The notes beneath the pieces are model-generated. The model searched no databases. It had not been told where the DNA came from and worked only from the letters and a program-made list of their open reading frames with translations. Of a DNA stretch of 35,471 nucleotides, positions 5,428 to 26,591 are shown in pieces; position 1 is the stretch's first letter; each line of letters begins with the position of its first letter. Both the position numbers and the translations under genes were made by a program. Source of the stretch: Gammaproteobacteria bacterium (GTDB taxonomy: Bacteria; Pseudomonadota; Gammaproteobacteria; GCA-001735895); the NCBI GenBank assembly GCA_050298595.1, contig JBNKUM010000106.1, forward strand, positions 1-35,471, given 5' to 3'.

Positions 5428-5811
5428 ATGAGCCTGGTCTACTGTTGCCACTCATCAAAGTTTTACCATGCGGTGAGCTGCTGGATCGATAACAGAACAG
5501 ACGAAGATTCATTATTTGTTTTACCATCCTTCAGATCGTTTTTTTGCGCGCCAATTCCTGTTGGCCGCAATATGACACCAGTCATGTTTTTTATGCCTGG
5601 AACGCCTGTGCTGACCTTTCAGGCCTCTTATGCACTGGATCATCTAAAGCCCTGGATAAACAAAAATATCATGCTGAATCCCTTGTATGTAGAGCGGATA
5701 AAACAGGTTGGCCAACTGATGGCCGAATTAATTAGCAATGAGCGTTGGGCAGTTAGTAATGGCCTGATCGTCAGTGATTTGTTATCTGAAGAACCACGGA
5801 GGTTCGCGTAA
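5428..5811 (+). CDS. Hypothetical protein
   Basis: Fills the gap between neighbours (2-nt gap upstream, TAATG overlap downstream). Confidence 0.6.
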   Translation: MSLVYCCHSSKFYHAVSCWIDNRTDEDSLFVLPSFRSFFCAPIPVGRNMTPVMFFMPGTPVLTFQASYALDHLKPWINKNIMLNPLYVERIKQVGQLMAELISNERWAVSNGLIVSDLLSEEPRRFA

Positions 5812-6488
5812 TGTCATCAACAGCTCTTCATATAGAAAGCTATTTTCCACCGGAACGTAATCACCTGGACTGGGCTCACTTAATCAAACGCCGCAAATGG
5901 GTTTTAGAACATATTGAGGACGTACCACCCTATTTACTGCTGCCAGAGATTCACTCTATTTTATGTAACGTGATAGACCCAGATCTGCATTTTTTTATAA
6001 ATACGATTTGGCATATAGGTGCAAGGATATCTGAAGCCCTGGAGCTAACACCGCAACATTTTAGCATCGATGATCCAACAATTAGTTATGCATCGATTAG
6101 AACATATAAGAAGCGTACGGCAATAGGGGAAAAAAGGCCTGTTCGCAGTGTACCTATCTATGACCATACGTATAAAAGTGAGCTGATGAGCTACTGTTAT
6201 TCAAAAGGTATAGCTCGCAGTAGTGTTTTATTTCCATTTGTGCGCGGTACCTACAACAAGAAACTGGAACGTCTTCAGGATCGACTGGCTTCTAATGATT
6301 TGGTTTACCCAGTTAAATTAACACCTCATGTGTTCCGCCATAGCTTCGCTATTCACTGTCTGCTGAACAGAATTCACCTCAACGATATACAGAGATATCT
6401 AGGTCACAAAAACATCAGTGAGACAGAAATCTATACCAGGATATTCACAGGCGAAACAGACGTTTATATGTCTGCCGTTCAATTTTAG
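5811..6488 (+). CDS. Tyrosine recombinase (ResD/Rsd-like multimer resolvase)
   Basis: GARISEAL, HVFRHSFA and LGHKNISETEIYT catalytic motifs; P.YLL.PE N-terminal motif; no arm-binding domain. Confidence 0.92.
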   Translation: MSSTALHIESYFPPERNHLDWAHLIKRRKWVLEHIEDVPPYLLLPEIHSILCNVIDPDLHFFINTIWHIGARISEALELTPQHFSIDDPTISYASIRTYKKRTAIGEKRPVRSVPIYDHTYKSELMSYCYSKGIARSSVLFPFVRGTYNKKLERLQDRLASNDLVYPVKLTPHVFRHSFAIHCLLNRIHLNDIQRYLGHKNISETEIYTRIFTGETDVYMSAVQF

Positions 6489-7975: not shown

Positions 7976-8584
7976 TTAAAATCCTGGTGGTAATTTTGTG
8001 TGTACCGCTGATTTAATAGGTTTCAAAGACTCGGTAATACCTAATGTTTTAGCGACAGCATAAACCATTGGTCTAAGCAGTACTCCCTGCTCAACCTCCA
8101 TTAAATTACGAAAATGTATTTTATGAAGAGTATTTGCTCTTTTACTGCGCCTATCAAAATCAAATTCACATAACTCAGGGCTGCTTTCAGCAACATAAGT
8201 ACGACAAACTAATGGGCGGGCTGTATACACCATGCATCTCCCATCTTCTAAAAATAAGCAGGGAATTCGAAGTTTATTAATTTGTCGCTCCGCAGAGATT
8301 AAATCATCTTCTGTTAATGGATTATAAACCGATGCATTAGGTGTAATATGGTTGAACTTCCTTATCCATTCTTCCCCACTTTCTTTAGCTTTGACGCGCT
8401 GCTCCATGTTTAAAGATGACAATATGTAGCGCTCTAACACCAACCCCTCCTGAGAAAATATCGATACACTTTGGTGGCAACATGCTGAACATCCCTCGGT
8501 GCATACTTTAGGGATGTTTTTCATTGCCCAGTCAACTCGTTTAAGGCAGTTTTTAGTATCTCGATAAACCTTTTCTACATTCAT
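7976..8584 (-). CDS. YkgJ/UPF0153-family cysteine-cluster protein
   Basis: CTEGCSACC and CLFLEDGRCMVYTARPLVCRTY motifs. Confidence 0.9.
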   Translation of the reverse strand: MNVEKVYRDTKNCLKRVDWAMKNIPKVCTEGCSACCHQSVSIFSQEGLVLERYILSSLNMEQRVKAKESGEEWIRKFNHITPNASVYNPLTEDDLISAERQINKLRIPCLFLEDGRCMVYTARPLVCRTYVAESSPELCEFDFDRRSKRANTLHKIHFRNLMEVEQGVLLRPMVYAVAKTLGITESLKPIKSAVHTKLPPGF

Positions 8585-8710: not shown

Positions 8711-11347
8711 CTAACGATACTCCACGTTCTTGATTGTCATTTCAGTGCTCGATGTTATTACTCTTTCCTTTTTGATAGGCGCAGCAGCTTCATTTTTTAT
8801 ACTAATGCCGAAGAACAACAAAGTAACTACCGCAAGGGCTGCGACAGCCATAGCACTTAAGCTGATGCCTTTATCTCCGTAGTCATATGTATTTTTATGG
8901 GTTAGCTCATAAGTCATGGATGATGCTAATATTTTCTCCAGACTCTTTTTTTCACCAGTTGTGGCCATAACCAGGGACTCTCTCATTTGTTTTGCAACTT
9001 TATCGATAAAGGGTAATGACATGGGGTGCCCTGCTTCCGTGGCGATCCGGTTACAGACGACCATAGTGGTTCTGGTGTTGCCTTCCATGAATGGGTGTAT
9101 CTGCCAAAGCTCTGTCATAAAGTCAGTTAATTTTTCAGTGAATTCTGACTGATCAAGTCCTTTGAAATTATTATGTTTGTCCAACTCATTGAACAATTTT
9201 TCAGCCCTCGGGATAATTGAATCTTCGTGCTTACCTGGAGAAGCGTATTCGACAGATTTACCACCCAGGAGAGGTTCCTTTTTTCCTATTGCCAGTTCTC
9301 TTTCATCACCGGCCCAGTCAGGGTAAACGTCCTGGAATATGTAAGCGTGCGTAGCTTTAACAGCAGCGAAATCAATCTTTCCCTCCATTGGATTATCGAT
9401 GAGTTCTTTTATCCTTAAACCAGAAAAAAAAGTTTCGCACTCTCGTAACTGCTTAGGGTCTTTTTCGTCAAACCAATTTTTGAGTACATTCGTTCCCTGA
9501 TAATTATATTTTTCAATAGTGGGGTGCACGTTTGCTTGTGTTATATTTTGCATTTTTACCTGGTCCCAGTCGTAGCCTATCGGCTTATTTGTTTCAAGCC
9601 AGTCATAATCGATTGGATTCATTTGATCAAAGGATAGAGAGGTTAAACCCACATCCTTAAGTTCAACACCGAGAAATTTTGCAATGCCTTCTGATATTTC
9701 CAATATTTCATCACTACTTAAATTCTTGGTTAAAAAGTTTTCCAGGTGTTGACCGTGTTTGTTACCTTCTGTAAATGCAATCAACTGGTAGCCTTTCTCT
9801 CTCTCTGATGGTGGAGTTTCCCAACTTCCAAACAGCTCAGTACTTAGCTCAATATGGCTCAACTTACCTATATCTATGTTCTTAGAAATATCAATATTGA
9901 CGGTTTTTCCTCCGGGCAGTTCATGCCTATAAACAGTTCGCTTATTGTACTCATGTGATAAGACATTAAGGTGTTTTACATACTGCTCAGCCTGACTCTT
10001 ACTTTTGAAAAGCGCTACATCATCTTTTATGTCGAAAGTACTGCCGATTCTAATCCCCTCAACCATGTGATATACGTCACCTTTCAAAAAATCCCCTAGA
10101 TGCTCTGCTCTCTTGGATAATTCAATTACAGGCTCTAGATCATCTCCGTATTCAGGTGGATAAAAATAGGGCCTGAGCTCCATTTCGCTAACTGTGAAGC
10201 TTTTATATTTAGCTAAATCTACATTAAAATTTGCTTCTTCTGCTTTTCCATAAAGTTTATGTCCAAAATCCTCGAGTAGTTCTTGGTGCTCAGCTAGGCT
10301 TTTATTATCAAGCCAATAATTGAACTTTTTTGCATCTTCAGTGTTGTCATTTAAAGATTTCTTGAAACCATAATCTTCTGCGCTGAATACTTTATTGAAT
10401 TTCTCTCGAGCTTTGTTATATGTTTCTTCGTCGCCATTTTCACGCAATGAATTGGCATGAATAAGCTCATTAAGCGCTTCTTCCATTTTAGCACTCATAG
10501 GCTTTATAACTGTTTCATCACTCCAAGGTAAGTATATTGTTGTTTTTTCTATTTCCAATTCCTTGTGATTTAGTATTGCTCTTAGTTCTTCACTTAATTT
10601 ATTTTCTGCGGCGAGTCGTTTCTCCCGTTCTTCCTCACTATAAATATAAGCCCAGTAATTGAAATCTTTTTCGTCTTGCGGGTCAGCAAATACAGGTTTT
10701 TTTAAATCGTCTTGTGACTCATAATCATCACCGAAAAAAGCTTTATTGAAATTATTTCTCGCAATATTGTAGACTTCTTCGTCGGCTCCATTTGCTTGCT
10801 CAACAAAGGCTTTCTTAAGCTCTGATAGTGCTATTTTCATTTCATAAGGCATAACTTTAAAATTTCTCTCCCCTTCCTTGAAATTTTTAATGTTTTCACG
10901 CCATGCCTCAAAATGCTTGTTTACGCGTAGGTTATGATCGTCCCATTCTTCTGTTCCATCACTGCCACCATCGTAATATGAAAATATTTTAACCCACTCG
11001 CCCTCCCCTATGTTTACCACAGTCGGATCCATTCCTAATCCCAACGAGATGCCTTTCTCTTTTAAAAATTCCCACCCTTCGTCATTTGCCAGAGGTGTAG
11101 CGTAAAGAGGTACTCCTCCGTATTCTCGAGTGCCAGGTAAACCGCCGTAACCAAATAATCCATATTGGATATCTCTAATTTTTTGACGTACCGGTCCTTT
11201 CCAGCCTTCAGCGGGTGTCAGGCTATTTGCAGTGATTCGCAGGGCTTCTCTGGCGAGATATTTAACCTTGTCCCTGGGTGCTCTGATAAATCGTTGGAAA
11301 GTTGAAATTTCTTCAAGCTTTACAACTGTGAGGCAATACTCTCCCAT
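8711..11347 (-). CDS. Large multidomain Fic protein (FicT/VbhT-like domain) with C-terminal TM helix
   Basis: Y.Y.GTNVLKN, H.YIFQDVY..WAG..R and HPFMEGNTRT motifs. About 610-aa unknown N-terminal part. TM segment LSAMAVAALAVVTLLFFGISI. Confidence 0.88.
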   Translation of the reverse strand: MGEYCLTVVKLEEISTFQRFIRAPRDKVKYLAREALRITANSLTPAEGWKGPVRQKIRDIQYGLFGYGGLPGTREYGGVPLYATPLANDEGWEFLKEKGISLGLGMDPTVVNIGEGEWVKIFSYYDGGSDGTEEWDDHNLRVNKHFEAWRENIKNFKEGERNFKVMPYEMKIALSELKKAFVEQANGADEEVYNIARNNFNKAFFGDDYESQDDLKKPVFADPQDEKDFNYWAYIYSEEEREKRLAAENKLSEELRAILNHKELEIEKTTIYLPWSDETVIKPMSAKMEEALNELIHANSLRENGDEETYNKAREKFNKVFSAEDYGFKKSLNDNTEDAKKFNYWLDNKSLAEHQELLEDFGHKLYGKAEEANFNVDLAKYKSFTVSEMELRPYFYPPEYGDDLEPVIELSKRAEHLGDFLKGDVYHMVEGIRIGSTFDIKDDVALFKSKSQAEQYVKHLNVLSHEYNKRTVYRHELPGGKTVNIDISKNIDIGKLSHIELSTELFGSWETPPSEREKGYQLIAFTEGNKHGQHLENFLTKNLSSDEILEISEGIAKFLGVELKDVGLTSLSFDQMNPIDYDWLETNKPIGYDWDQVKMQNITQANVHPTIEKYNYQGTNVLKNWFDEKDPKQLRECETFFSGLRIKELIDNPMEGKIDFAAVKATHAYIFQDVYPDWAGDERELAIGKKEPLLGGKSVEYASPGKHEDSIIPRAEKLFNELDKHNNFKGLDQSEFTEKLTDFMTELWQIHPFMEGNTRTTMVVCNRIATEAGHPMSLPFIDKVAKQMRESLVMATTGEKKSLEKILASSMTYELTHKNTYDYGDKGISLSAMAVAALAVVTLLFFGISIKNEAAAPIKKERVITSSTEMTIKNVEYR

Positions 11348-11358
11348 GTTGATACCTC

Positions 11359-11550
11359 TTATTTTTTGTCCTGTTTAAGCGAATAGCCATTGATATCGGC
11401 ATACTCTTTTCTAATCTCGTCATGGCTTTTTTTACCATCGGCAGCCTGACCAAATAATCGTAGTATTTTAGGTGAGATATCCATACCAGCGACTTTTATA
11501 AATGCTGTGTACTTAGATAATATTGTTTGTCTGTTGTTTGTATTTTTCAT
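11359..11550 (-). CDS. VbhA/FicA-like antitoxin
   Basis: 63 aa, immediately upstream of the Fic gene. Pattern A....AGMDISP....L......G..S.DEI aligns by eye with VbhA. Confidence 0.7.
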   Translation of the reverse strand: MKNTNNRQTILSKYTAFIKVAGMDISPKILRLFGQAADGKKSHDEIRKEYADINGYSLKQDKK

Positions 11551-11555
11551 GATAT

Positions 11556-14522
11556 CTACCTTGCGATTGTATAGGTATTTATTGAACCAGATGTTTGTCT
11601 TAAGGCTGACGCACCTATCGCAGCATACAATTTTATATCTATTGACTCGTCTAGAGTCCAGGTGATGGTTTTATCCAGGTCTTTTGGATCATAGCTGCTA
11701 AAAGTATCAATATTGGCAACTTCTGTGTCATTGTAGTCAGGCAAAAGTGGTAGTGTTATATTTTTCCGTATCTCAACGGTAACCCCCGCAGGAATGATGT
11801 AGTAACCGCCTTGATTTGTTATTTCTGCATTATTTGTAACACTGAAAACTGTTGAAGTAGAATCGCTTATAGTGTGATTTAGAGTGGTAGAATTGAGGTT
11901 ATTCCTCGGAAATCCTGATTCATAAATATTTTCATATGTTGTGTATTTCTCCATATTCCTGTGGACAACCCATTCGTCTAATAAGGCTGGGTTTTGTATG
12001 AAGTAAGTGTGTACAGAAACACATGCATAATGAGAATCAAACCGATAATCTGCAAATGTTGTTTCTTGGGTGCCGCCTTCAGACCACGACCAAGAAGGAT
12101 CTGAATATCCAGACCCTTCATGACAAATCATATCACTATTATCTGCCCAGTCTGTATCTGGTTGAACAGGAACTACATCTTGATACACATTCGTGAAATC
12201 AGATGTAATGACTGGAGCTTCAATTACATCCCAATCGGAACCATTCCATTTATCAATTGAGTTTATGTCGATCCATGATGATGTGGAGTTATACGCATTA
12301 ATATAACGTGCTCTCCAATGCTCAGTTGATATCGTAGCCATTCTGTTTACTCTTATCGCAGTTTCATAAACCTGCTCAATTGAGTGATTATCGGTAGTGC
12401 TGAAATCCATATAGATTGGGTTGTCAGATCCATTGGAGATAGTTGCCACAGAAGAAACCGAATTACCAAATATAGTTGATCGACTAGTGAATGGCTTATT
12501 AATAACACTAGCCCCGTCAGAACTGCCAGTTGCAGTGACATTGTAGAGAAGAACATCAAACTGCATTTTGTACGATATTAATGTTGAGTGACCAACATTA
12601 TCAGTTACTTTCACAGTCACTACATGATTATCCGTGGTAGAAGTAATAAACCAGTCTGAACCTAAATATTCTGTAGTGATAGGCAAAATATAGTAACCAT
12701 CTAATGATCCAGGAATTGAGCTTTTAAAACCGGTATTTAAGCTTGTCCAATCAACAACCAATTCATCATTTTTTTCATATTTATATTCAACCTTCAAATC
12801 CTCGAACTGAGAATATACATTTGCCCCAACAACATCACCGGCTGAAAACTCTAAGTATACAAAGTTCAGACTTTGTAAGTTTCTATCTGCTGATGCTCCG
12901 TTTAGTGAAACACGGTCAGAACGCACACAAAGCGGAACTGAACTATCTGTAACAAAATTCTCATAATTACATAAGGCGTACTGACCTTGATATGTGGTGT
13001 GTAATATAGACCTTGTTCTTGGTGTTACGGAGGGAGGTAGGAGGTCGACTCCGACTTGATAACTTTGTGTAGTAGAGTTTGTCAGCTCGTCAACAGCAAC
13101 GACACCAAATGAATTTTGACCGCTAGTTAATGTTATATTCGCTTCCCATGTACCATCTGGATTAATCGTAGCGGCTTCACCATCAACAGTGATTGACTGT
13201 ATGTCAGAACCTGAACTAATCCAAGTTCCTGTAGCGGTGTAATCAGTACTACCCACTACAGCAGCTGAGGTCATATTAATTGCAGGGCCTGTATTCGATA
13301 TGTTGTAAGTTGCTAAAAGAGTTGTTTCGTTGCCGATCAGATCAACCGCGACTACTTTTACGACATGGCTACCGTCTGTGTAATTTGATGTATTCAGGTT
13401 TAGCGTTGTTCCAGTGGGGCCGTTCGTGGTCACTAAGCCGTTATCCACATAAAAAGAAATCGTTTTTACTCCAACCGGATCATCTATTGAGAAAGGGATA
13501 TCAGTTGTACCACCGATATAACTATTTTCTGCCAGTTGCAATCCAACAGCAGGCCCCTCATTATCAACAGGTTGCCCTGGTTCTCCAGCCCAGATGCTGT
13601 CTGTATTCGTTGAGAGTGCGTTAGCAAATACTAAAAGCTTTTCAATATCCAGACCTGTCTTATTTTCATCAGATTTAGCGAAGCTTAGTATCCTCTGCGC
13701 CAGTATATTGCGGTACATGATTGGGGTGATCGGGTAGGTACCAAAAGCTAGTGAGCCAATGGTTGTACTGTCTATATACCCATTTCCGTTAAGCATCCCA
13801 TCAGCTTTGATATCGTTGCATGCTACTCTTGACCACTGCATCGATGTAAGAAACGTCTCGCTATGAGGATCTAGCCCGTTGGCTCCTGAGACATCAGCCA
13901 TCGATGTCGAAATACCTGCGGTCAGAAATCCATATTTAAGTCCTGGTGTTAACTCTATATTTGCACTGTTGATATCAGTCACATCAATAGGTTTTGTCTG
14001 GATGATTTCAACACCTGCAATTGACGCTATTTTTGAATTAGCGAGATTTAAAGCATCAGGTACGCTCTCCCCTTCTGCCACTAAATATTCAGCATAGCAT
14101 CGGGCCAAATTAGTGAATGGTGTAACCTGGAGTGTCAGGGTCTCGCCTGATTGATAGTTGGTGATAGCGCTGATATTTTGGCCTGCTGATAAGCCAATGC
14201 TTTTGCCGCTAGCTTCTTCGGTGTATGCGCCACTGTCACCGGCGACTATCATAATGGGTTTGTCTTCTGAAACGAGTTCAAGCGCGTAGTTGCCATCACC
14301 GTCTGTTTCTGTTTGACCCAGTAGAGCTCCTTTTTTGCCAGTTGACCAATCGTATATCTTAATCTGTGCATTGCGCAGGGGTGCATCGTGAGCAACACCT
14401 GAGAAAGATCCGGCTGGTCGTGTCGGTGGTAAGTCGCTCCCTCCCCCGCTGTTGCCACTGCCGCCACAACCTGTTAAACCCGTTAATAATAGTACCGCTG
14501 AAACTCCTATTATCCTTTTCAT
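11556..14522 (-). CDS. Large outer-membrane lipoprotein with Ig-like domains (putative adhesin)
   Basis: Lipobox LTGC (Cys19) followed by a Gly/Ser tether. Ig-like signatures such as LNTSNYTDGSHVVKVVAVDLIGN and ATINPDGTWEANITLTSGQNSFGVVAVD. T/S/N/D-rich. Confidence 0.85.
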   Translation of the reverse strand: MKRIIGVSAVLLLTGLTGCGGSGNSGGGSDLPPTRPAGSFSGVAHDAPLRNAQIKIYDWSTGKKGALLGQTETDGDGNYALELVSEDKPIMIVAGDSGAYTEEASGKSIGLSAGQNISAITNYQSGETLTLQVTPFTNLARCYAEYLVAEGESVPDALNLANSKIASIAGVEIIQTKPIDVTDINSANIELTPGLKYGFLTAGISTSMADVSGANGLDPHSETFLTSMQWSRVACNDIKADGMLNGNGYIDSTTIGSLAFGTYPITPIMYRNILAQRILSFAKSDENKTGLDIEKLLVFANALSTNTDSIWAGEPGQPVDNEGPAVGLQLAENSYIGGTTDIPFSIDDPVGVKTISFYVDNGLVTTNGPTGTTLNLNTSNYTDGSHVVKVVAVDLIGNETTLLATYNISNTGPAINMTSAAVVGSTDYTATGTWISSGSDIQSITVDGEAATINPDGTWEANITLTSGQNSFGVVAVDELTNSTTQSYQVGVDLLPPSVTPRTRSILHTTYQGQYALCNYENFVTDSSVPLCVRSDRVSLNGASADRNLQSLNFVYLEFSAGDVVGANVYSQFEDLKVEYKYEKNDELVVDWTSLNTGFKSSIPGSLDGYYILPITTEYLGSDWFITSTTDNHVVTVKVTDNVGHSTLISYKMQFDVLLYNVTATGSSDGASVINKPFTSRSTIFGNSVSSVATISNGSDNPIYMDFSTTDNHSIEQVYETAIRVNRMATISTEHWRARYINAYNSTSSWIDINSIDKWNGSDWDVIEAPVITSDFTNVYQDVVPVQPDTDWADNSDMICHEGSGYSDPSWSWSEGGTQETTFADYRFDSHYACVSVHTYFIQNPALLDEWVVHRNMEKYTTYENIYESGFPRNNLNSTTLNHTISDSTSTVFSVTNNAEITNQGGYYIIPAGVTVEIRKNITLPLLPDYNDTEVANIDTFSSYDPKDLDKTITWTLDESIDIKLYAAIGASALRQTSGSINTYTIAR

Positions 14523-15104: not shown

Positions 15105-15428
15105 TTACTTACCTGATATTTTGCTAACTAAAATTCGTTCGTTTTCCTCGGCTTCTTTCACCTGGTCTTTACTGACAATCAGTTCTATTACAGTTAAGTT
15201 GTTCTTTTCTAATATTGCGCTCAACCTGGATTCCACTGTGTTTATCACCCGAGAAAGACTTTGCTTGTGTGACCCTTCAGATTTAAGGACTTCAGTACGA
15301 GGTATATTTTCCACAAGTACCTTGTATGCGATCATAAGGTTTTTTTTGCTTAGCCTTGATCCTTTGGTAGCTAAATCAAATTGTGTTTTATTCATTTTGA
15401 ATTCTGCGTCTTCTTCGTTGTGGCGCAT
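15105..15428 (-). CDS. KorA/TrfB(ArdK)-like transcriptional repressor
   Basis: QF..A...S......IA..VLV...P.......G..KQSLSR.I matches the KorA HTH layout. Alternative start at 15395. Confidence 0.75.
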   Translation of the reverse strand: MRHNEEDAEFKMNKTQFDLATKGSRLSKKNLMIAYKVLVENIPRTEVLKSEGSHKQSLSRVINTVESRLSAILEKNNLTVIELIVSKDQVKEAEENERILVSKISGK

Positions 15429-21810: not shown

Positions 21811-22110
21811 ATGAAGAAAAAAACCTCTGTACTTTTAGAATCCAACCACCGTAAAGCCATCTCTAAGATCATGTCGGATAAGGGCTGCAAAGAATCCGAG
21901 GCTATCCGCCACCTTCTTGACCGCGGTGTAGACTACAATAATTTAGTTAACATAATGGAAGTAACTGAGCTAAAAATATTTTACTACCTTCGGCAGATAG
22001 CTCTTTTGCGCGGGGCTGATTTTGTGAATAAGATAGAATCTGATTTCACAGAAGTTCAGGAAGATATGCTTAAATCTTTGAGGGAGGGAATTTCTCATGT
22101 CGGCAAGTAA
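21811..22110 (+). CDS. Relaxosome accessory protein (ribbon-helix-helix, TrwA-like position)
   Basis: KKTSVLL...SEAIRHLL..G RHH pattern; lies between oriT and the coupling protein. Confidence 0.7.
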   Translation: MKKKTSVLLESNHRKAISKIMSDKGCKESEAIRHLLDRGVDYNNLVNIMEVTELKIFYYLRQIALLRGADFVNKIESDFTEVQEDMLKSLREGISHVGK

Positions 22111-23926
22111 AGAACTGAATACCGGCGCTAAAAAAATCAGTAGCGACGTGCAACAAAATATCCGTTCTTTTTTCCTTAAACTTCGTATCTTTGTTTTTTC
22201 ATTTCTGATTTCATTTATTGTTTCGATTTATCTCATAGTACCGCGCTCTGAGATCGATAACCTGGGCTACTGGATTAAAGCCTATTTTACTATCACGGTT
22301 TTGCATTCTGAGTCAGACACTATTAATTATAAATCTGATGATGGTAAAAAAATGTTGCTATCTGTTGGCACAATCATAAATAAACCTTCCGTTTTAGCAT
22401 CGCTTAATCAACTAAAATGGCATGTTTTTTATAGCCTCATAATAAGCATTTTTACAGCGATTTTACTAACCTACACCGTGATAGTAGTCTTACGTAAATA
22501 TGGCAAGGAATCCTCTTCAGCATCGAAGCGTTTGCGAGGTGCGGAACTGGTGTCAGAAGGTGAGTTGATCAAACGCATAAACAGCGCAGGTATTGCGGGT
22601 GATTTGAGGGTTGGTAATGTACCGTTGCCAGTCGGAGCAGAAACCCAGCACATCTATATATCAGGTGCGACAGGTTGCGGTAAAGGTAATGCGATAAAAG
22701 GCGTTATCGATGTTATAGCCAGTCGAGGCCAGCGCTTCATAATTTACGATAAATCAGGCGAATATGTGTCCAAATATTACCGCGAGGATAAAGATGTAAT
22801 CCTAAACCCATTTGACTCAAGGATGCCTTTTTGGTCTCCCTGGAACGAATGCGAAACATCTTTTGACTACGAAATGATGGCGGCTTCTTTTGTTCCCGAC
22901 ATCCCCAATCAAAAAGACGAACACTGGGTAGACGGCCCGCGTGAAGTACTGTCTGATTTACTGCTCACACTTGCACAGCAAGACATGTGTAACATTGATG
23001 ATTTATTGGCGCTTTCCAGGGATAAAAACGAATTGCATGATTTCCTTGTAGGTAAATCAGGCGCTAGTCAACTCGACCCTGAATCGCCTGAGCATGCCAG
23101 CTCCATGATCTCTATTTTATCACCCAAATTACGGCCCATGCAGTATTTGAGAAATATTGAAAGCGACGAATATTTTTCGCTACGTGAATGGGTGAGAACA
23201 GACAGTGACCGCAGAGTTTTTATAACCTGCTCTCAACGTCAAAAAAGAACTCTTCAGCCACTCATGACGGCATGGATTGATATTGTTATTTCTGAAATTC
23301 TAAGTCTTCCTGAAGACAGAGACCGCAGGCTTTTTACTATTACGGACGAACTGGCTTCTCTTGATCCCGTTAACAGTATTTACGATGGGCTAAATGAAGG
23401 TCGTAAATTTGGCCTTTGCAATATCATTTCGGTAACGTCTGAAGAAGCATTAAAAGAAAAGTATGGTGACAAAAAAGCCAAGACCATGATAGGAATGTGC
23501 GCTACAAAAGTTTGCTACCGATGCGACGAGCCAGACAACGCAAAATGGCTCGCGGATCTGTTCGGTGAGGAAGATGTGCAGGACTCAAAACAGAGCGTCA
23601 CCTTATCTGATCGTAACGACTCTACTAACCTGCATGATCAGCGCAGCAAACGCCATATATTGCTCCCTACTGAGTTCATGGATCTGCCCGACATGACTGC
23701 CATCCTAAAGCTTGGTAAATCCCTGCCGATTGGCAAAGTATCTGTGCCTTACAAACCTCGCCCTGACATCGCTGCGCCAATGATATTGAAGAATTATGAC
23801 CCGTTGAAATATAGTACAAGCCGCAGCGAGGGTGCTCAGCAGGATGATGACCCTCAAGACTATGATAGCTATGAATATATGATACCGGACAGTGCTGAAG
23901 AGCAAGAAGAGGATCTGGTGCTTTAG
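22097..23926 (+). CDS. Type IV coupling protein (TrwB/TraD family)
   Basis: Two N-terminal TM helices; RGAEL, E.QH..I.GATGCGK, IIYDKSGEY, ILNPFD.R, DELASL and EGRKFG motifs. Confidence 0.93.
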   Translation: MSASKELNTGAKKISSDVQQNIRSFFLKLRIFVFSFLISFIVSIYLIVPRSEIDNLGYWIKAYFTITVLHSESDTINYKSDDGKKMLLSVGTIINKPSVLASLNQLKWHVFYSLIISIFTAILLTYTVIVVLRKYGKESSSASKRLRGAELVSEGELIKRINSAGIAGDLRVGNVPLPVGAETQHIYISGATGCGKGNAIKGVIDVIASRGQRFIIYDKSGEYVSKYYREDKDVILNPFDSRMPFWSPWNECETSFDYEMMAASFVPDIPNQKDEHWVDGPREVLSDLLLTLAQQDMCNIDDLLALSRDKNELHDFLVGKSGASQLDPESPEHASSMISILSPKLRPMQYLRNIESDEYFSLREWVRTDSDRRVFITCSQRQKRTLQPLMTAWIDIVISEILSLPEDRDRRLFTITDELASLDPVNSIYDGLNEGRKFGLCNIISVTSEEALKEKYGDKKAKTMIGMCATKVCYRCDEPDNAKWLADLFGEEDVQDSKQSVTLSDRNDSTNLHDQRSKRHILLPTEFMDLPDMTAILKLGKSLPIGKVSVPYKPRPDIAAPMILKNYDPLKYSTSRSEGAQQDDDPQDYDSYEYMIPDSAEEQEEDLVL

Positions 23927-23927
23927 C

Positions 23928-26591
23928 ATGCTATCAATACATAAAATCGAAAGTGCTGAAAATGCCAAACATTACTTTGGAAAGGATAATTACTATACCA
24001 AAGACGGAGCACTTGAAAATAGCTACTGGTACGGCAAAGGCGCTGACAAGCTGGAGCTTAAGGGTTACGTCCACCCAGACAATTTTTTTGAACTTCTTTC
24101 TGGCGAAACTAAGGACATGCGTCTTGGTCGTTTTGTTGACGGCGAAAGAGTGCATACGCCCGGTTGGGATTGTACTTTCAGCGCCCCCAAGAGCGTCAGT
24201 ATACTTTCTGAAGCTTTTGGTATGGAAGAGATTAGAAAGGCACACACTGACTCAGTAAAAAATGCTCTGGATTTCATTCAGGCACAATGTTCAGTCACTC
24301 GGCGAAAAGTTGATGGGTTAATGACCGCAGAAACCACAGGCAACCTGTGCATAGCGGCCTTCACTCATGACACCTCAAGAGAGCTAGATCCACAATTACA
24401 TACTCACTGCATAGTCGCTAACGCAACCCATACAGATGATGGCTGGCGTTCGCTCGACTCACGGAATCTATTCCAACTGAAAATGACCGCAGGGCGGTTC
24501 TACAGGAACGAGCTAGCGCGTCGATTGAACAAGCTGGGTTACACGGTTGAAATTACCGGTAAGAACGGCTTATTCGAAATAGCCGGTTTTGATAAAACGC
24601 TGTTGGATCAATTTTCAACTCGTCGTATTCAGATAGAGCAGTATTTAGTAGATAATAACCTGCCTAACACGCCTTCCAATTGTGAACTGGCTGCATTAAA
24701 CACTCGCGTGGCCAAAAAGGATGTAGACCGATCAAAACTACATGATACCTGGAAAAAAAAGCTGGGTGCCCTCGATCTAGAAGCAGGCGATTTTCAAACA
24801 CCCGGTGTCATACTTTCGCCTTCTGCTAAAACTATAGTCAGACGCGCAGTCAGACTTTTGTCAGAACACGACATGGCATTTAGTACAGATCAAATTTTAA
24901 ACCTGTGCTGCGAAACTAATCTTGGTAACACATCAAGCAGGTCTATTTTAAAGGAGATCGACAGGCTTAAAACTATAGGTCATTTATTGGATGCTGATAA
25001 TGACCTGGTTACAACAAAGCAGGGGGTGGATCTAGAAAGGCAAATCATTCGCAATTTACACAATAGCTTTGGTGTGCTCTCACCTTTAGCTGATGCAGCT
25101 AAGATTGGTCGACTACTCAAGGGTTCCTGGCTTAATGAAGACCAGCTGGGCGCAATTAAGCATTGCCTGAGTAGTGAGCACCGCTTCATAGGGATACAGG
25201 GCAATGCAGGGACAGGTAAAACATCGGCACTTTCTGAGCTTGTCAAAATACTGAAAAGGTATGGTAAGAACGTCTTAGCTGTAGCACCGACTCATACTGC
25301 GGTCGGTGAATTGAAAAAATCACTCGATTGTCCCACTCAAACGCTGGACACTTTCTTGCACAGCAAAAAAGATTCTTCCAAAGAATCACCTGTCTGGATC
25401 GTTGATGAGGCCTCCTTTATGTCAGCCAAAAAAATGGATCGGCTACAGCGTCAGGCCATCAGCGCAAATGCAAGGGTTATTCTTGTTGGTGACTTCAGAC
25501 AGCTCGAATCCATAGAAGCGGGCAGGGTATTCAAAATGCTACAGGATGCAGGCATGGAAACTGCTGTAATAAGCAGGAACATGCGACAAAAGGATGAAGC
25601 GCTTTTTGATTCAGTGACTCACATGGTAAAAGATCAGTTCGACAAAGCCCTGGATAGAATTTCATCTAGCATTACTGAAATCGATAGCTCTGAAGGCAGA
25701 ATCAGCGCGATGGTAAACGACTGGCTTTCCCTGGATAAACCCGAGCGTGACAAAACGCAGATGTTAGCCCCATCGAATGTTGAAAGGATAGCTGCTAACA
25801 ATCTGGCTCATCATTTACTCATTGAAACCGGAGACCTAAAGAAACGATCTGTGAAGATCCAAACTTACGAAAACAAACCCATCAGCAGTATTCAGTCGAG
25901 ACAAACCACCAGCTACGTTCCGGGTGATGTCCTAAGGTTCGCCAGGGACTACAAGGCTACCAGCAAAAAAGCGCAGAATAGTATCTCTAAGGACGAATAT
26001 TATAGCGTGGTGGCGATAGATAATAAAACGAACACACTTCATCTGCGATCTAACGACGATGGCCGGAGCTTCACATTAAACCCAAACAAACGCGGCGGCA
26101 ATAGGGTGGGTGGTATATCTACTTTCAAAATATCGACACTTGAGGTCAACATAGGCGAATCACTAAGGTGGACTGACAATAAAAACAACCTCGGTATAAA
26201 GCGTAACCACACGCTCACAGTCGAAGATATTGTTAACGATAAGCTCATTGTCACGGATGAAGCTGATAATAAAAGAGTGTTAAATCTCAACGCAGCTCAG
26301 CACAGACACTTTACCTATAACTATGTAAATACAGTCTATCAGTCCCAGGGAAAGACTTGTGACAACGTGCTGTCACTTGCTGACTCAAGTCAACTTAACC
26401 TCATCAATCGCAAATCATTTTACGTCACGGTTAGCCGCGCTCGACACTCCGCAAAAATATATACGGACAATAGGGAGAGGTTATCGGATGCCATCGGCTC
26501 ACGATTCGGACATAATACCGTCGCCTTAAAGCAGGAACACGTCAAGTCGTTGGCTGAAAATAGAATTAGAGTAAATTCTCACTTGCTTTAA
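23928..26591 (+). CDS. MOBF relaxase-helicase (TrwC/TraI type)
   Basis: MLSI start at 23928; Y...DNYY, D.TFSAPKSVS, HDTSRELDPQLHTH; helicase motifs G.AGTGKT, VDEAS, GD..QL, QG.T and YV.VSRAR. Confidence 0.96.
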   Translation: MLSIHKIESAENAKHYFGKDNYYTKDGALENSYWYGKGADKLELKGYVHPDNFFELLSGETKDMRLGRFVDGERVHTPGWDCTFSAPKSVSILSEAFGMEEIRKAHTDSVKNALDFIQAQCSVTRRKVDGLMTAETTGNLCIAAFTHDTSRELDPQLHTHCIVANATHTDDGWRSLDSRNLFQLKMTAGRFYRNELARRLNKLGYTVEITGKNGLFEIAGFDKTLLDQFSTRRIQIEQYLVDNNLPNTPSNCELAALNTRVAKKDVDRSKLHDTWKKKLGALDLEAGDFQTPGVILSPSAKTIVRRAVRLLSEHDMAFSTDQILNLCCETNLGNTSSRSILKEIDRLKTIGHLLDADNDLVTTKQGVDLERQIIRNLHNSFGVLSPLADAAKIGRLLKGSWLNEDQLGAIKHCLSSEHRFIGIQGNAGTGKTSALSELVKILKRYGKNVLAVAPTHTAVGELKKSLDCPTQTLDTFLHSKKDSSKESPVWIVDEASFMSAKKMDRLQRQAISANARVILVGDFRQLESIEAGRVFKMLQDAGMETAVISRNMRQKDEALFDSVTHMVKDQFDKALDRISSSITEIDSSEGRISAMVNDWLSLDKPERDKTQMLAPSNVERIAANNLAHHLLIETGDLKKRSVKIQTYENKPISSIQSRQTTSYVPGDVLRFARDYKATSKKAQNSISKDEYYSVVAIDNKTNTLHLRSNDDGRSFTLNPNKRGGNRVGGISTFKISTLEVNIGESLRWTDNKNNLGIKRNHTLTVEDIVNDKLIVTDEADNKRVLNLNAAQHRHFTYNYVNTVYQSQGKTCDNVLSLADSSQLNLINRKSFYVTVSRARHSAKIYTDNRERLSDAIGSRFGHNTVALKQEHVKSLAENRIRVNSHLL

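Follow-up and report, generated by a model that had tools for sequence, protein, structure and literature searches.

The closest described system to the locus treated here is the VbhT/VbhA pair of Bartonella (PDB 3shg, 3zc7), in which a FIC gene carried by a conjugative plasmid is immediately preceded by a small partner gene. The same order is found in the window, which is the whole stretch of 35,471 nucleotides analysed (contig JBNKUM010000106.1 of the Gammaproteobacteria bacterium assembly GCA_050298595.1), where an open reading frame (ORF) for a 63-residue protein stands directly upstream of one for an 878-residue protein with a FIC domain. VbhT has the motif GNGRxxR and VbhA, a small three-helix protein, has SxxxEG, whereas the window pair reads GNTRxxM and FxxxAG; unlike in VbhT, the FIC domain of the window is C-terminal and followed by a membrane helix, and the BID family is not among the Pfam matches of the 878-residue protein, which at E ≤ 1 were solely Fic and a weak IMEF_Flp. 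It is very likely that the two genes are a FicTA-like pair of the subclass with the motif GNTRxx[not R], and probable that they form a FicTA-type (VbhTA-like) module of this subclass in which the partner acts as a hydrophobic plug and the reaction is not AMPylation.

For the canonical enzymes, Schirmer et al. describe an Asn/Asp three residues ahead of the catalytic His that is poised for ribose binding, a flap Phe that contacts adenine, a Ser/Thr about 39 residues past the His that binds ribose, and a second Gly of the motif at which any side chain disturbs phosphate binding (PMC8401265). The second Arg of the enzyme is contacted by two FicA residues, the Ser/Thr and the Glu (PMC8401265; PMC5033356), and in EcFicT and VbhT the Asp of the N-terminal DPY element pairs with R0, the Arg at the fourth motif residue (PMC5033356). 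EcFicT/EcFicA of E. coli (PDB 5jff) resembles the window pair in being of class I, with a motif that is degenerate and a reaction likewise without assignment, but it is the converse case: the first Arg is missing, and the second Arg is retained together with the Ser and Glu of the antitoxin, with which it still pairs (PMC5033356). In Doc a Lys at the second Gly forces ATP into an inverted position and makes the enzyme a kinase (PMC4177925). The Doc/Phd pair of phage P1 is like the window in that the second Gly is replaced by a bulky residue and a second Arg is lacking, and is a mechanistic analogy for a non-AMPylating reaction; Doc differs in having HxFx(D/N)(A/G)NKR on a six-helix core. Phd is not known to be related to VbhA.

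The motif class of the window has been described before. Khater and Mohanty (2015) gave Hxxx[D|E]GNTRxx[!R] as one of five Fic/Doc motif groups (clade F3) and stated, from cited unpublished simulations, that the inhibitory helix of this group is modified (PMC4454073). The window belongs to this group, with a Thr in place of the second Gly and no last Arg; the main text of that paper holds no partner motif, reaction or gene context for it, and the window copy is a long fusion with a predicted tail anchor. Sprenger et al. (2017) reported that C. fetus Fic2 (HPFREGNTRTIA) arrests the growth of E. coli and disturbs its ribosome profiles, and that this toxicity is abolished by H184A and neutralised by Fic1 and Fti3 (PMC5651007). 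Fic2 is of the same motif class as the window, by which it is likened here, and sets a precedent for a His-dependent bacterial toxin with protein neutralisers; its cis antitoxin is however a Fic protein, Fic1, and not a small VbhA-like protein, and its gene is chromosomal and lies on a pathogenicity island. Already in print, then, are the motif class and the modification of its inhibitory helix, as well as the toxicity of a single member; to these the window adds an architecturally odd member.

The FIC domain of the 878-residue protein was matched by Pfam Fic (PF02661) over residues 658-768 (E 1.9e-12, 48.3 bits against a cut-off of 24) and by the NCBIfam VbhT model (NF045983) over residues 612-822 (E 2.1e-23) at 83.1 bits, which does not reach that model's cut-off of 800. 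Its best solved relative was VbhT (PDB 3shg, E 3.5e-15), in which HPFREGNGRTLR was aligned to HPFMEGNTRTTM, and VbhT also came first when the subclass profile was matched to the PDB (2.1e-46). The residues H751, F753, E755, G756, N757 and the first Arg, R759, are kept, as in the Fic/DOC superfamily at large, while the full HxFx(D/E)GNGRxxR signature of canonical AMPylating Fic enzymes is broken by T758 at the second Gly and M762 at the second Arg; a further change, M754, falls on the fourth residue (R0). In the places of the canonical Asn/Asp and flap Phe stand W748 and Y701. An additional Arg, R789, lies 38 residues past H751. The letters that the initial annotation had reported for this motif, and for AFIKVAG in the small protein against ASQRLEG in VbhA, are all present, and the start coordinate given there, 9062, is the last base of the motif, since the motif runs over 9062-9097 on the minus strand. 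Its statement that the antitoxin Glu and the second Arg are both absent while the catalytic His is retained agrees with the ORF translations and the VbhT alignment.

The small protein reads ...KYTAFIKVAGMDISP..., containing AFIKVAG, and the VbhA counterpart was verified on both the B. grahamii VbhA and the PDB VbhA. Direct searches returned nothing from the PDB (phmmer at E ≤ 10), only the protein itself from a word-indexed set of 5.8 billion clustered proteins, and no BLASTP alignment to B. grahamii VbhA or a B. cereus FicA-like ORF. A profile made by aligning 24 upstream partners of related Fic genes (A2) matched residues 7-50 in hhalign (probability 79.9%, E 1.4e-5) and matched the protein in hmmsearch (E 1.1e-5 in a set of 20 sequences). 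A2 is of the VbhA family, as 18 of its 24 members match PF18495 (best E 4.4e-15) and the profile matches the PDB VbhA (1.7e-6) and also two Bep antitoxins (4.4e-6 and 6e-4), and its consensus Asp is aligned onto the inhibitory Glu of VbhA. MAFFT placed the 63-residue protein in register with no gaps across the motif, with the nearly invariant A14 and the only invariant column, G39, kept. The three methods agree that F17, A21 and G22 occupy the S/T, Glu and G/N columns, so that F, A and G stand where the inhibitory motif has (S/T)xxxE(G/N). By these alignments the protein is a divergent VbhA-family protein with the helix-1 motif F-x-x-x-A-G, as the initial annotation had supposed, and the small upstream partner that marks class I FicTA pairs is recognised through the profile matches.

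Residues 590-835 were searched in full with HMMER against 1.84 billion cluster representatives, giving 3265 matches at E ≤ 0.001. Among the 150 best representatives the pattern H.F.[DE]GN[TS]R..[not R] was found in 98 and GNGRxxR in 37; the GNTR type thus makes up about two thirds of the nearest representatives, and it was common among the fetched plasmid and gut-bacterial loci. The nearest relative, P0008 (254 residues, motif HPFREGNTRVTM), was 55% identical. In a FastTree tree of 148 rows the window fell, at 96% local support, into a group with P0008, P0011 and P0012, which all lack the second Arg, and the presence or absence of the second Arg required 9 changes against a shuffled mean of 35, in a tree that kept the motif columns.

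The pockets of 100 GNTR-type domains (99 from the library and the window) were compared with those of 38 canonical ones (37 from the library and B. grahamii VbhT). The column of T758 at the second Gly was Thr in 98% of the GNTR group and Gly in 100% of the canonical group, that of W748 was Trp in 91% and Asn in 100%, and that of Y701 at the flap end was Tyr in 96% and Phe in 97%, respectively. In the flap, Glu at the E691 column was present in 89% against 5%, and Leu at L694 in 91%, where 95% of the canonical sequences have a gap. Arg at the R789 column occurred in 93% of the GNTR group and in 0% of the canonical group; in the fetched loci 79 of the 81 GNTR-type genes had it and none of the 14 others, the corresponding Trp and Tyr being present in 78 and 79 of the 81. 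The window copy carries the whole of this package, i.e. Thr at the second Gly, a hydrophobic residue at the second Arg, the Trp ahead of the His, the flap Tyr, the flap insertion and R789. The subclass-wide Asn to Trp and flap Phe to Tyr changes and the gain of a near-invariant Arg argue for a remodelled rather than an eroded site, and we infer from these columns that the active site is conserved and functional and holds its donor otherwise than in AMPylases.

An alignment of 36 GNTR-type domains served to scan 185,579 species genomes for related loci. Of at least 595 confirmed loci the best 80 were used, none of them above 39% identity. A FIC ORF was found in 77 of the 80; in 3 of these 77 the ORF taken was another, canonical Fic gene in the flank, and 74 had GN[TS]Rxx[not R]. 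Only 2 of these 74 had no upstream ORF of at least 35 residues, both matches lying within about 100 bases of the start of the locus, and in nearly all the remaining loci a small ORF ended a few bases from the FIC start, typically with a 4- or 8-nucleotide overlap. The upstream ORF matched A2 at E ≤ 1e-3 in 54 of the 74, and 30 of the 54 were outside the set from which the profile was built. In these 54 partners the S/T column was always hydrophobic (M 24, I 16, L 11, V 3) and never Ser or Thr, the Glu column was D in 48, E in 5 and N in 1, and the G/N column was G in 43, A in 8, S in 2 and N in 1. The typical motif of the relatives' partners is accordingly hydrophobic-x-x-x-D-(G/A), and the window's Phe...Ala-Gly is a minority form, fitting at the hydrophobic (F17) and Gly columns.

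As far as these alignments go, the tightest covariation is that between the change of the second Arg to a hydrophobic residue in the enzyme and the change of Ser/Thr to a hydrophobic residue in the partner, which fits because the Ser/Thr and the Glu of FicA both touch that Arg (PMC8401265, PMC5033356). The matched loss of Glu and second Arg proposed in the initial annotation is therefore borne out as a matched change, and far beyond this locus, but it is not peculiar to the pair, being the signature of a large subclass already in print; likewise the Glu is indeed replaced by Ala in the window, but the relatives usually have Asp and the sharper covariation lies at the S/T column.

The plasmid loci were an independent sample. 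Among 19 of them (fetched loci are numbered L), Glu was present in the partner of all 10 GNGRxxR genes (6 by hidden Markov model, 4 by eye), whereas the partners of GN[TS]R genes had Asp in the near-copies L084 and L099, Ala in L089 and Glu in L093, the partner of L090 being ambiguous, Ala or Glu depending on the register. In L097 (GNGRxxT) the second Arg alone is lost, and its partner has Met at the S/T column with the Glu kept. Longer partners with a ribbon-helix-helix-like N-terminus fell below the threshold, and by eye read STAGNG (L035, L037, L042), STGG (L068, L083) and ALGG (L079). The Asp column is Ala in L035/L037/L042 and in L089, and Gly in L068, L079 and L083, i.e. the departure from Asp recurs in independent lineages.

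Several partners differed in architecture. An N-terminal fusion of about 50 residues, by eye a ribbon-helix-helix of the RelB/DinJ type, was seen in L013, L035-L037, L042, L046, L054, L059, L068, L069, L079 and L083, which belong to Bacillota, Mollicutes and archaeal metagenome-assembled genomes, and in L058 and L080 a VbhA-like partner was fused to a helix-turn-helix-like segment; these likenesses, judged by eye, suggest autoregulating antitoxins. In the alphaproteobacterial GNTR loci L002, L030, L048, L070, L072, L077 and L085 the upstream ORFs were about 95-106 residues long and gave no reliable alignment to the VbhA-like profile, those of the plasmid loci L002 and L085 being of the 95-residue type, and they may represent a different partner family. 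Alphaproteobacterial GNTR-type Fic genes often stood directly behind a TraA relaxase gene (L002).

A model of the complex was built from an alignment of the FIC part (A1, residues 590-835) and one of the small ORF (A3). The pair scored 0.93 and the best of 3 controls 0.00, a mark that was attained by 116 of 157 solved complexes and by 2 of 215 mismatched pairs, although these benchmark counts are rough because our own alignments were used. The runs agreed in at least 90% of contacts, with a predicted local distance difference test (pLDDT) value of the partner of at least 86. The modelled low-error contacts joined residues 8-26 of the small protein to helix alpha-1 (625-651), G756, T758, R759, M762 and residues 778-792 of the enzyme, with F17 next to M762, R759 and T758, V20 next to M762, T758 and R789, and A21 next to T758. 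The complex modelling proposed in the initial annotation thus docks the small protein over the active-site loop; it supports binding, short of showing it, and that the partner binds as modelled is likely. The claim that the salt bridge is gone stands for the canonical pair, which is absent, but R789 is at the modelled interface and in the subclass the pair may have been relocated.

In the proposed explanation the small protein packs on the FIC domain's helix alpha-1, and the end of its first helix would be laid over the active-site loop. There F17 and V20 would rest on M762 and T758, and A21 on T758, so that a hydrophobic plug caps the site without a Glu-Arg salt bridge; in most members of the family the Asp may pair with R789 or R759, and the window copy would do without even that. 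The enzyme would be a His-dependent transferase that holds its co-substrate unlike ATP is held in AMPylases. Ordinary AMPylation is improbable because the side chain at the second Gly and the absent second Arg remove the canonical site for the beta and gamma phosphates, and because neither ribose contact is left as it was. An inverted or different phosphodiester donor, as in Doc, is the foremost guess, and by analogy with Fic2 the product would inhibit bacterial growth; through the predicted tail anchor the domain would be held against the membrane's inner face. A reaction other than canonical AMPylation is, from the sequences, somewhat favoured, and the 'different co-substrate or reaction' suggested earlier is consistent with the remodelled pocket and with what has been published on side chains at the second Gly (PMC8401265, PMC4177925); Doc-like phosphotransfer specifically is unlikely.

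A wider extension of this explanation is tentative and itself rather doubtful as a whole. It takes GNTR-type FIC domains as a widespread and conserved reaction class apart from AMPylation, for instance Doc-like phosphotransfer from an inverted donor, whose pocket would have been rebuilt with Thr, Trp, Tyr and the relocated Arg R789. The antitoxin would have co-evolved from (S/T)xxxE to hydrophobic-xxx-Asp, the lock becoming a hydrophobic plug with a relocated Asp-Arg pair, and the window copy, with its Ala, tail anchor and orphan 600 residues, would be a membrane-tethered plasmid toxin checked by sterics alone. In the literature searched, mostly outside subscription journals, neither a reaction assigned to the GNTR subclass nor the partner motif hydrophobic-xxx-Asp, the subclass Arg or the Trp and Tyr changes were found. 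The paired motif changes and the subclass-specific Arg give cheap and concrete hypotheses on the ligand of the enzyme and on how the partner blocks it. Taken by itself the window yields a modest gain: two so far hypothetical genes on a conjugative plasmid can be annotated as a probable toxin-partner pair, and an unusual membrane-anchored fusion is flagged.

Two other assignments were considered and rejected. Membership in Doc was rejected since the motif is GNTR and not NKR, and the DOC_P1 model TIGR01550 matched weakly, at E 0.0034 with 17.5 bits against a cut-off of 38.65. Intramolecular inhibition of class II or III was rejected as [ST]xxxE[GN] is found nowhere in the 878 residues.

Several findings weigh against the module as proposed. 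The 63-residue protein has no match in NCBIfam or in Pfam, where PF18495 (VbhA) was unreached even at E ≤ 1, and the likeness to VbhA depends on an intermediate profile at a moderate probability; of the family assignments made in the initial annotation, the Fic one is supported by Pfam directly and the VbhA one by the partner profile, but not by the Pfam VbhA family. The Asp column of the window partner is Ala, against Asp in 48 of 54 relatives, and Glu is kept in six GNTR-type pairs (5 of the 54 genome loci and the plasmid locus L093) in spite of the missing second Arg, so that the change of Glu is not obligatory. The 80 loci hold many Lachnospiraceae near-copies, and since they are the best 80 of at least 595, with these near-copies included, the locus counts are not counts of independent events. 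In the window copy R0 is Met, against Arg in 98% of the subclass, and the Asp of the DPY element is Glu (EKY, E612). These two could possibly be a second matched change peculiar to the window copy, but M754, EKY and the Ala of the partner together could also mean relaxed constraint, and with no relative above 55% identity the neighbours are too distant for gauging purifying selection on this copy. The high score of the complex model may mirror likeness to the VbhTA, BiaA-Bep and EcFicTA complexes, which are already solved.

An ordinary AMPylase, in which ATP is still used, R789 or another residue replaces the second Arg and the small protein inhibits by another contact, is improbable. The retention of the His, the Mg-binding Glu, Gly-Asn and the first Arg in a fold family like that of VbhT, and the position of R789 as a new conserved Arg near the pocket, would suit such an enzyme. 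Against it, the canonical mode of phosphate binding is said to be incompatible with a side chain at the second Gly (PMC8401265), Trp and Tyr replace the ribose-contacting Asn and the flap Phe throughout the subclass, and adenylylation was deemed unlikely by the authors of the Fic2 study (PMC5651007). Inhibition by another Glu, an outcome that the initial annotation had named as speaking against it, was looked for: helix 1 of the small protein is free of acidic residues, with zero Asp or Glu in residues 1-23, and the 878-residue protein lacks [ST]xxxE[GN], so no other Glu is in sight. A scan of residues 561-878 of the large protein for hydrophobic-xxx-[DE][GNAS] also gave none.

Decay offers a different account, in which the copy is a remnant or scaffold without catalytic activity and its small neighbour no more than a folding partner or relic. 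The departures specific to the window (Met at R0, DPY to EKY, Asp to Ala in the partner) and the fusion of the domain to an orphan region of 600 residues without relatives are what decay might leave, and a precedent exists in BepC, whose FIC domain acts by binding and for which no enzymatic activity was found (PMC8401265); yet neither ORF is broken, the two are closely coupled, with a Shine-Dalgarno sequence, all subclass-defining active-site residues are present, Ala or Gly at the Asp column recurs in the independent lineages named above, and the interface model is confident, which leaves this account a small probability, similar to that of the ordinary AMPylase. That the small ORF is no functional partner at all, being a chance ORF or serving the upstream lipoprotein gene, is very improbable: the absence of any direct database match, with the protein itself alone among 5.8 billion clustered proteins, would be expected of a chance ORF, but the profile matches fall in the correct register, the gene order is shared by the 54 related loci and by plasmid loci, and the complex model stands far above its controls. 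The FicTA-type module with a hydrophobic-plug partner is thus retained as the probable explanation, and its features and surroundings are listed in Table 1.

Table 1. Positions of the two ORFs, their features and neighbouring elements in the window.
Feature	Position	Strand	Basis
63-residue ORF, VbhA-family (FicA-like) partner gene	11359..11550	minus	ORF list and profile matches
AFIKVAG, residues 16-22, rewritten inhibitory motif	11485..11505	minus	
878-residue ORF, with an orphan region at the N-terminus, a class I-like FIC domain and a transmembrane helix at the C-terminus	8711..11347	minus	
GAGG (Shine-Dalgarno) of the 878-residue ORF, 7 nucleotides ahead of its ATG	11355-11358		
N-terminal ~600 residues, no detectable relative or family, internal repeat	9548..11347	minus	
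Internal repeat, residues 166-232 and 284-345	10643-10852 and 10304-10507	minus	pairwise comparison
E612 (DPY Asp column)	9512-9514	minus	
FIC domain, residues ~612-822, VbhT-like	8882..9514	minus	Pfam, NCBIfam, PDB
W748, three residues ahead of the catalytic His	9104..9106	minus	
FIC signature HPFMEGNTRTTM, residues 751-762 (H751...M762)	9062-9097	minus	alignment to VbhT
M754 (R0)	9086-9088	minus	
R789, subclass-specific near-invariant Arg at the modelled partner interface	8981..8983	minus	
C-terminal hydrophobic helix, residues ~828-850, predicted tail anchor	8798..8866	minus	
Top promoter-like site	15495-15468		11/12 matches
KorA-like gene	15105-15428	minus	
988-residue protein with Ig-like domains	11556-14522	minus	
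202-residue CxxCxxCC domain protein	7976-8584	minus	
Weak terminator-like site	7914-7901		
Short tyrosine-recombinase-like ORF	5811-6488		
Conjugative-plasmid backbone	15105-35471		
TrwB-type coupling protein	22097-23926		
TrwC relaxase-helicase	23892-26591		

For the N-terminal region of the 878-residue protein no homolog was found in full-length and shorter-query searches, no family in Pfam or PHROGs and no usable Atlas match, and the AlphaFold2 single-sequence model was unusable (mean pLDDT 35.8). The protein failed to retrieve itself in the word-indexed search. The two repeat copies, of about 65 residues, share 45% identity (E 7e-14) in a pairwise segment comparison and both end in FNYW, while in a BLAST of the whole protein against itself the repeat was not visible. 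The sole match of the full-length search (E 3e-5) was P0001, a protein of 1351 residues with the GNTR-type motif HPFAEGNTRTTA, whose N-terminal stretch …AIGLQAVDGLKPS… resembles a VbhA-like helix fused in cis, also with Asp; its precomputed Pfam list has helicase and restriction-enzyme domains among its entries. At the other end of the window protein, the highest Kyte-Doolittle windows of 19 residues begin at residues 827-832, and the nearest relative P0008 is likewise hydrophobic at its C-terminal end.

The two ORFs are co-directional, intact and tightly coupled, with a spacing of 11 nucleotides, and belong to a string of minus-strand genes that runs from the KorA-like gene over a 188-residue ORF, the 988-residue protein, the 63-residue and the 878-residue ORFs to the CxxCxxCC ORF. 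The best promoter-like site lies immediately upstream of the KorA-like gene, and the Fic/partner pair sits within this KorA-led operon of a conjugative-plasmid backbone. The 988-residue protein, whose stop is 5 nucleotides ahead of the ATG of the 63-residue ORF, has Ig-like domains (Big_7, Glucodextran_B) and a lipoprotein-like N-terminus (…LTGLTGCGG…); it had no relatives in PHROGs and could be a surface or mating adhesin. The CxxCxxCC (putative zinc- or iron-chelating) domain protein adjoins the Fic gene downstream, and the weak terminator-like site lies past it. A search of PLSDB for near-identical DNA gave nothing, and tblastn matches there were confined to the FIC part at no more than 38% identity. 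The backbone comprises the KorA-like repressor, a TrfA replication initiator and KorB- and ParA-like genes, together with a DUF3991/Toprim protein and VirB4- and TrbI/VirB10-like genes, and the genes for the TrwB-type coupling protein and the TrwC relaxase-helicase overlap. The window also has the short tyrosine-recombinase-like ORF given in Table 1.

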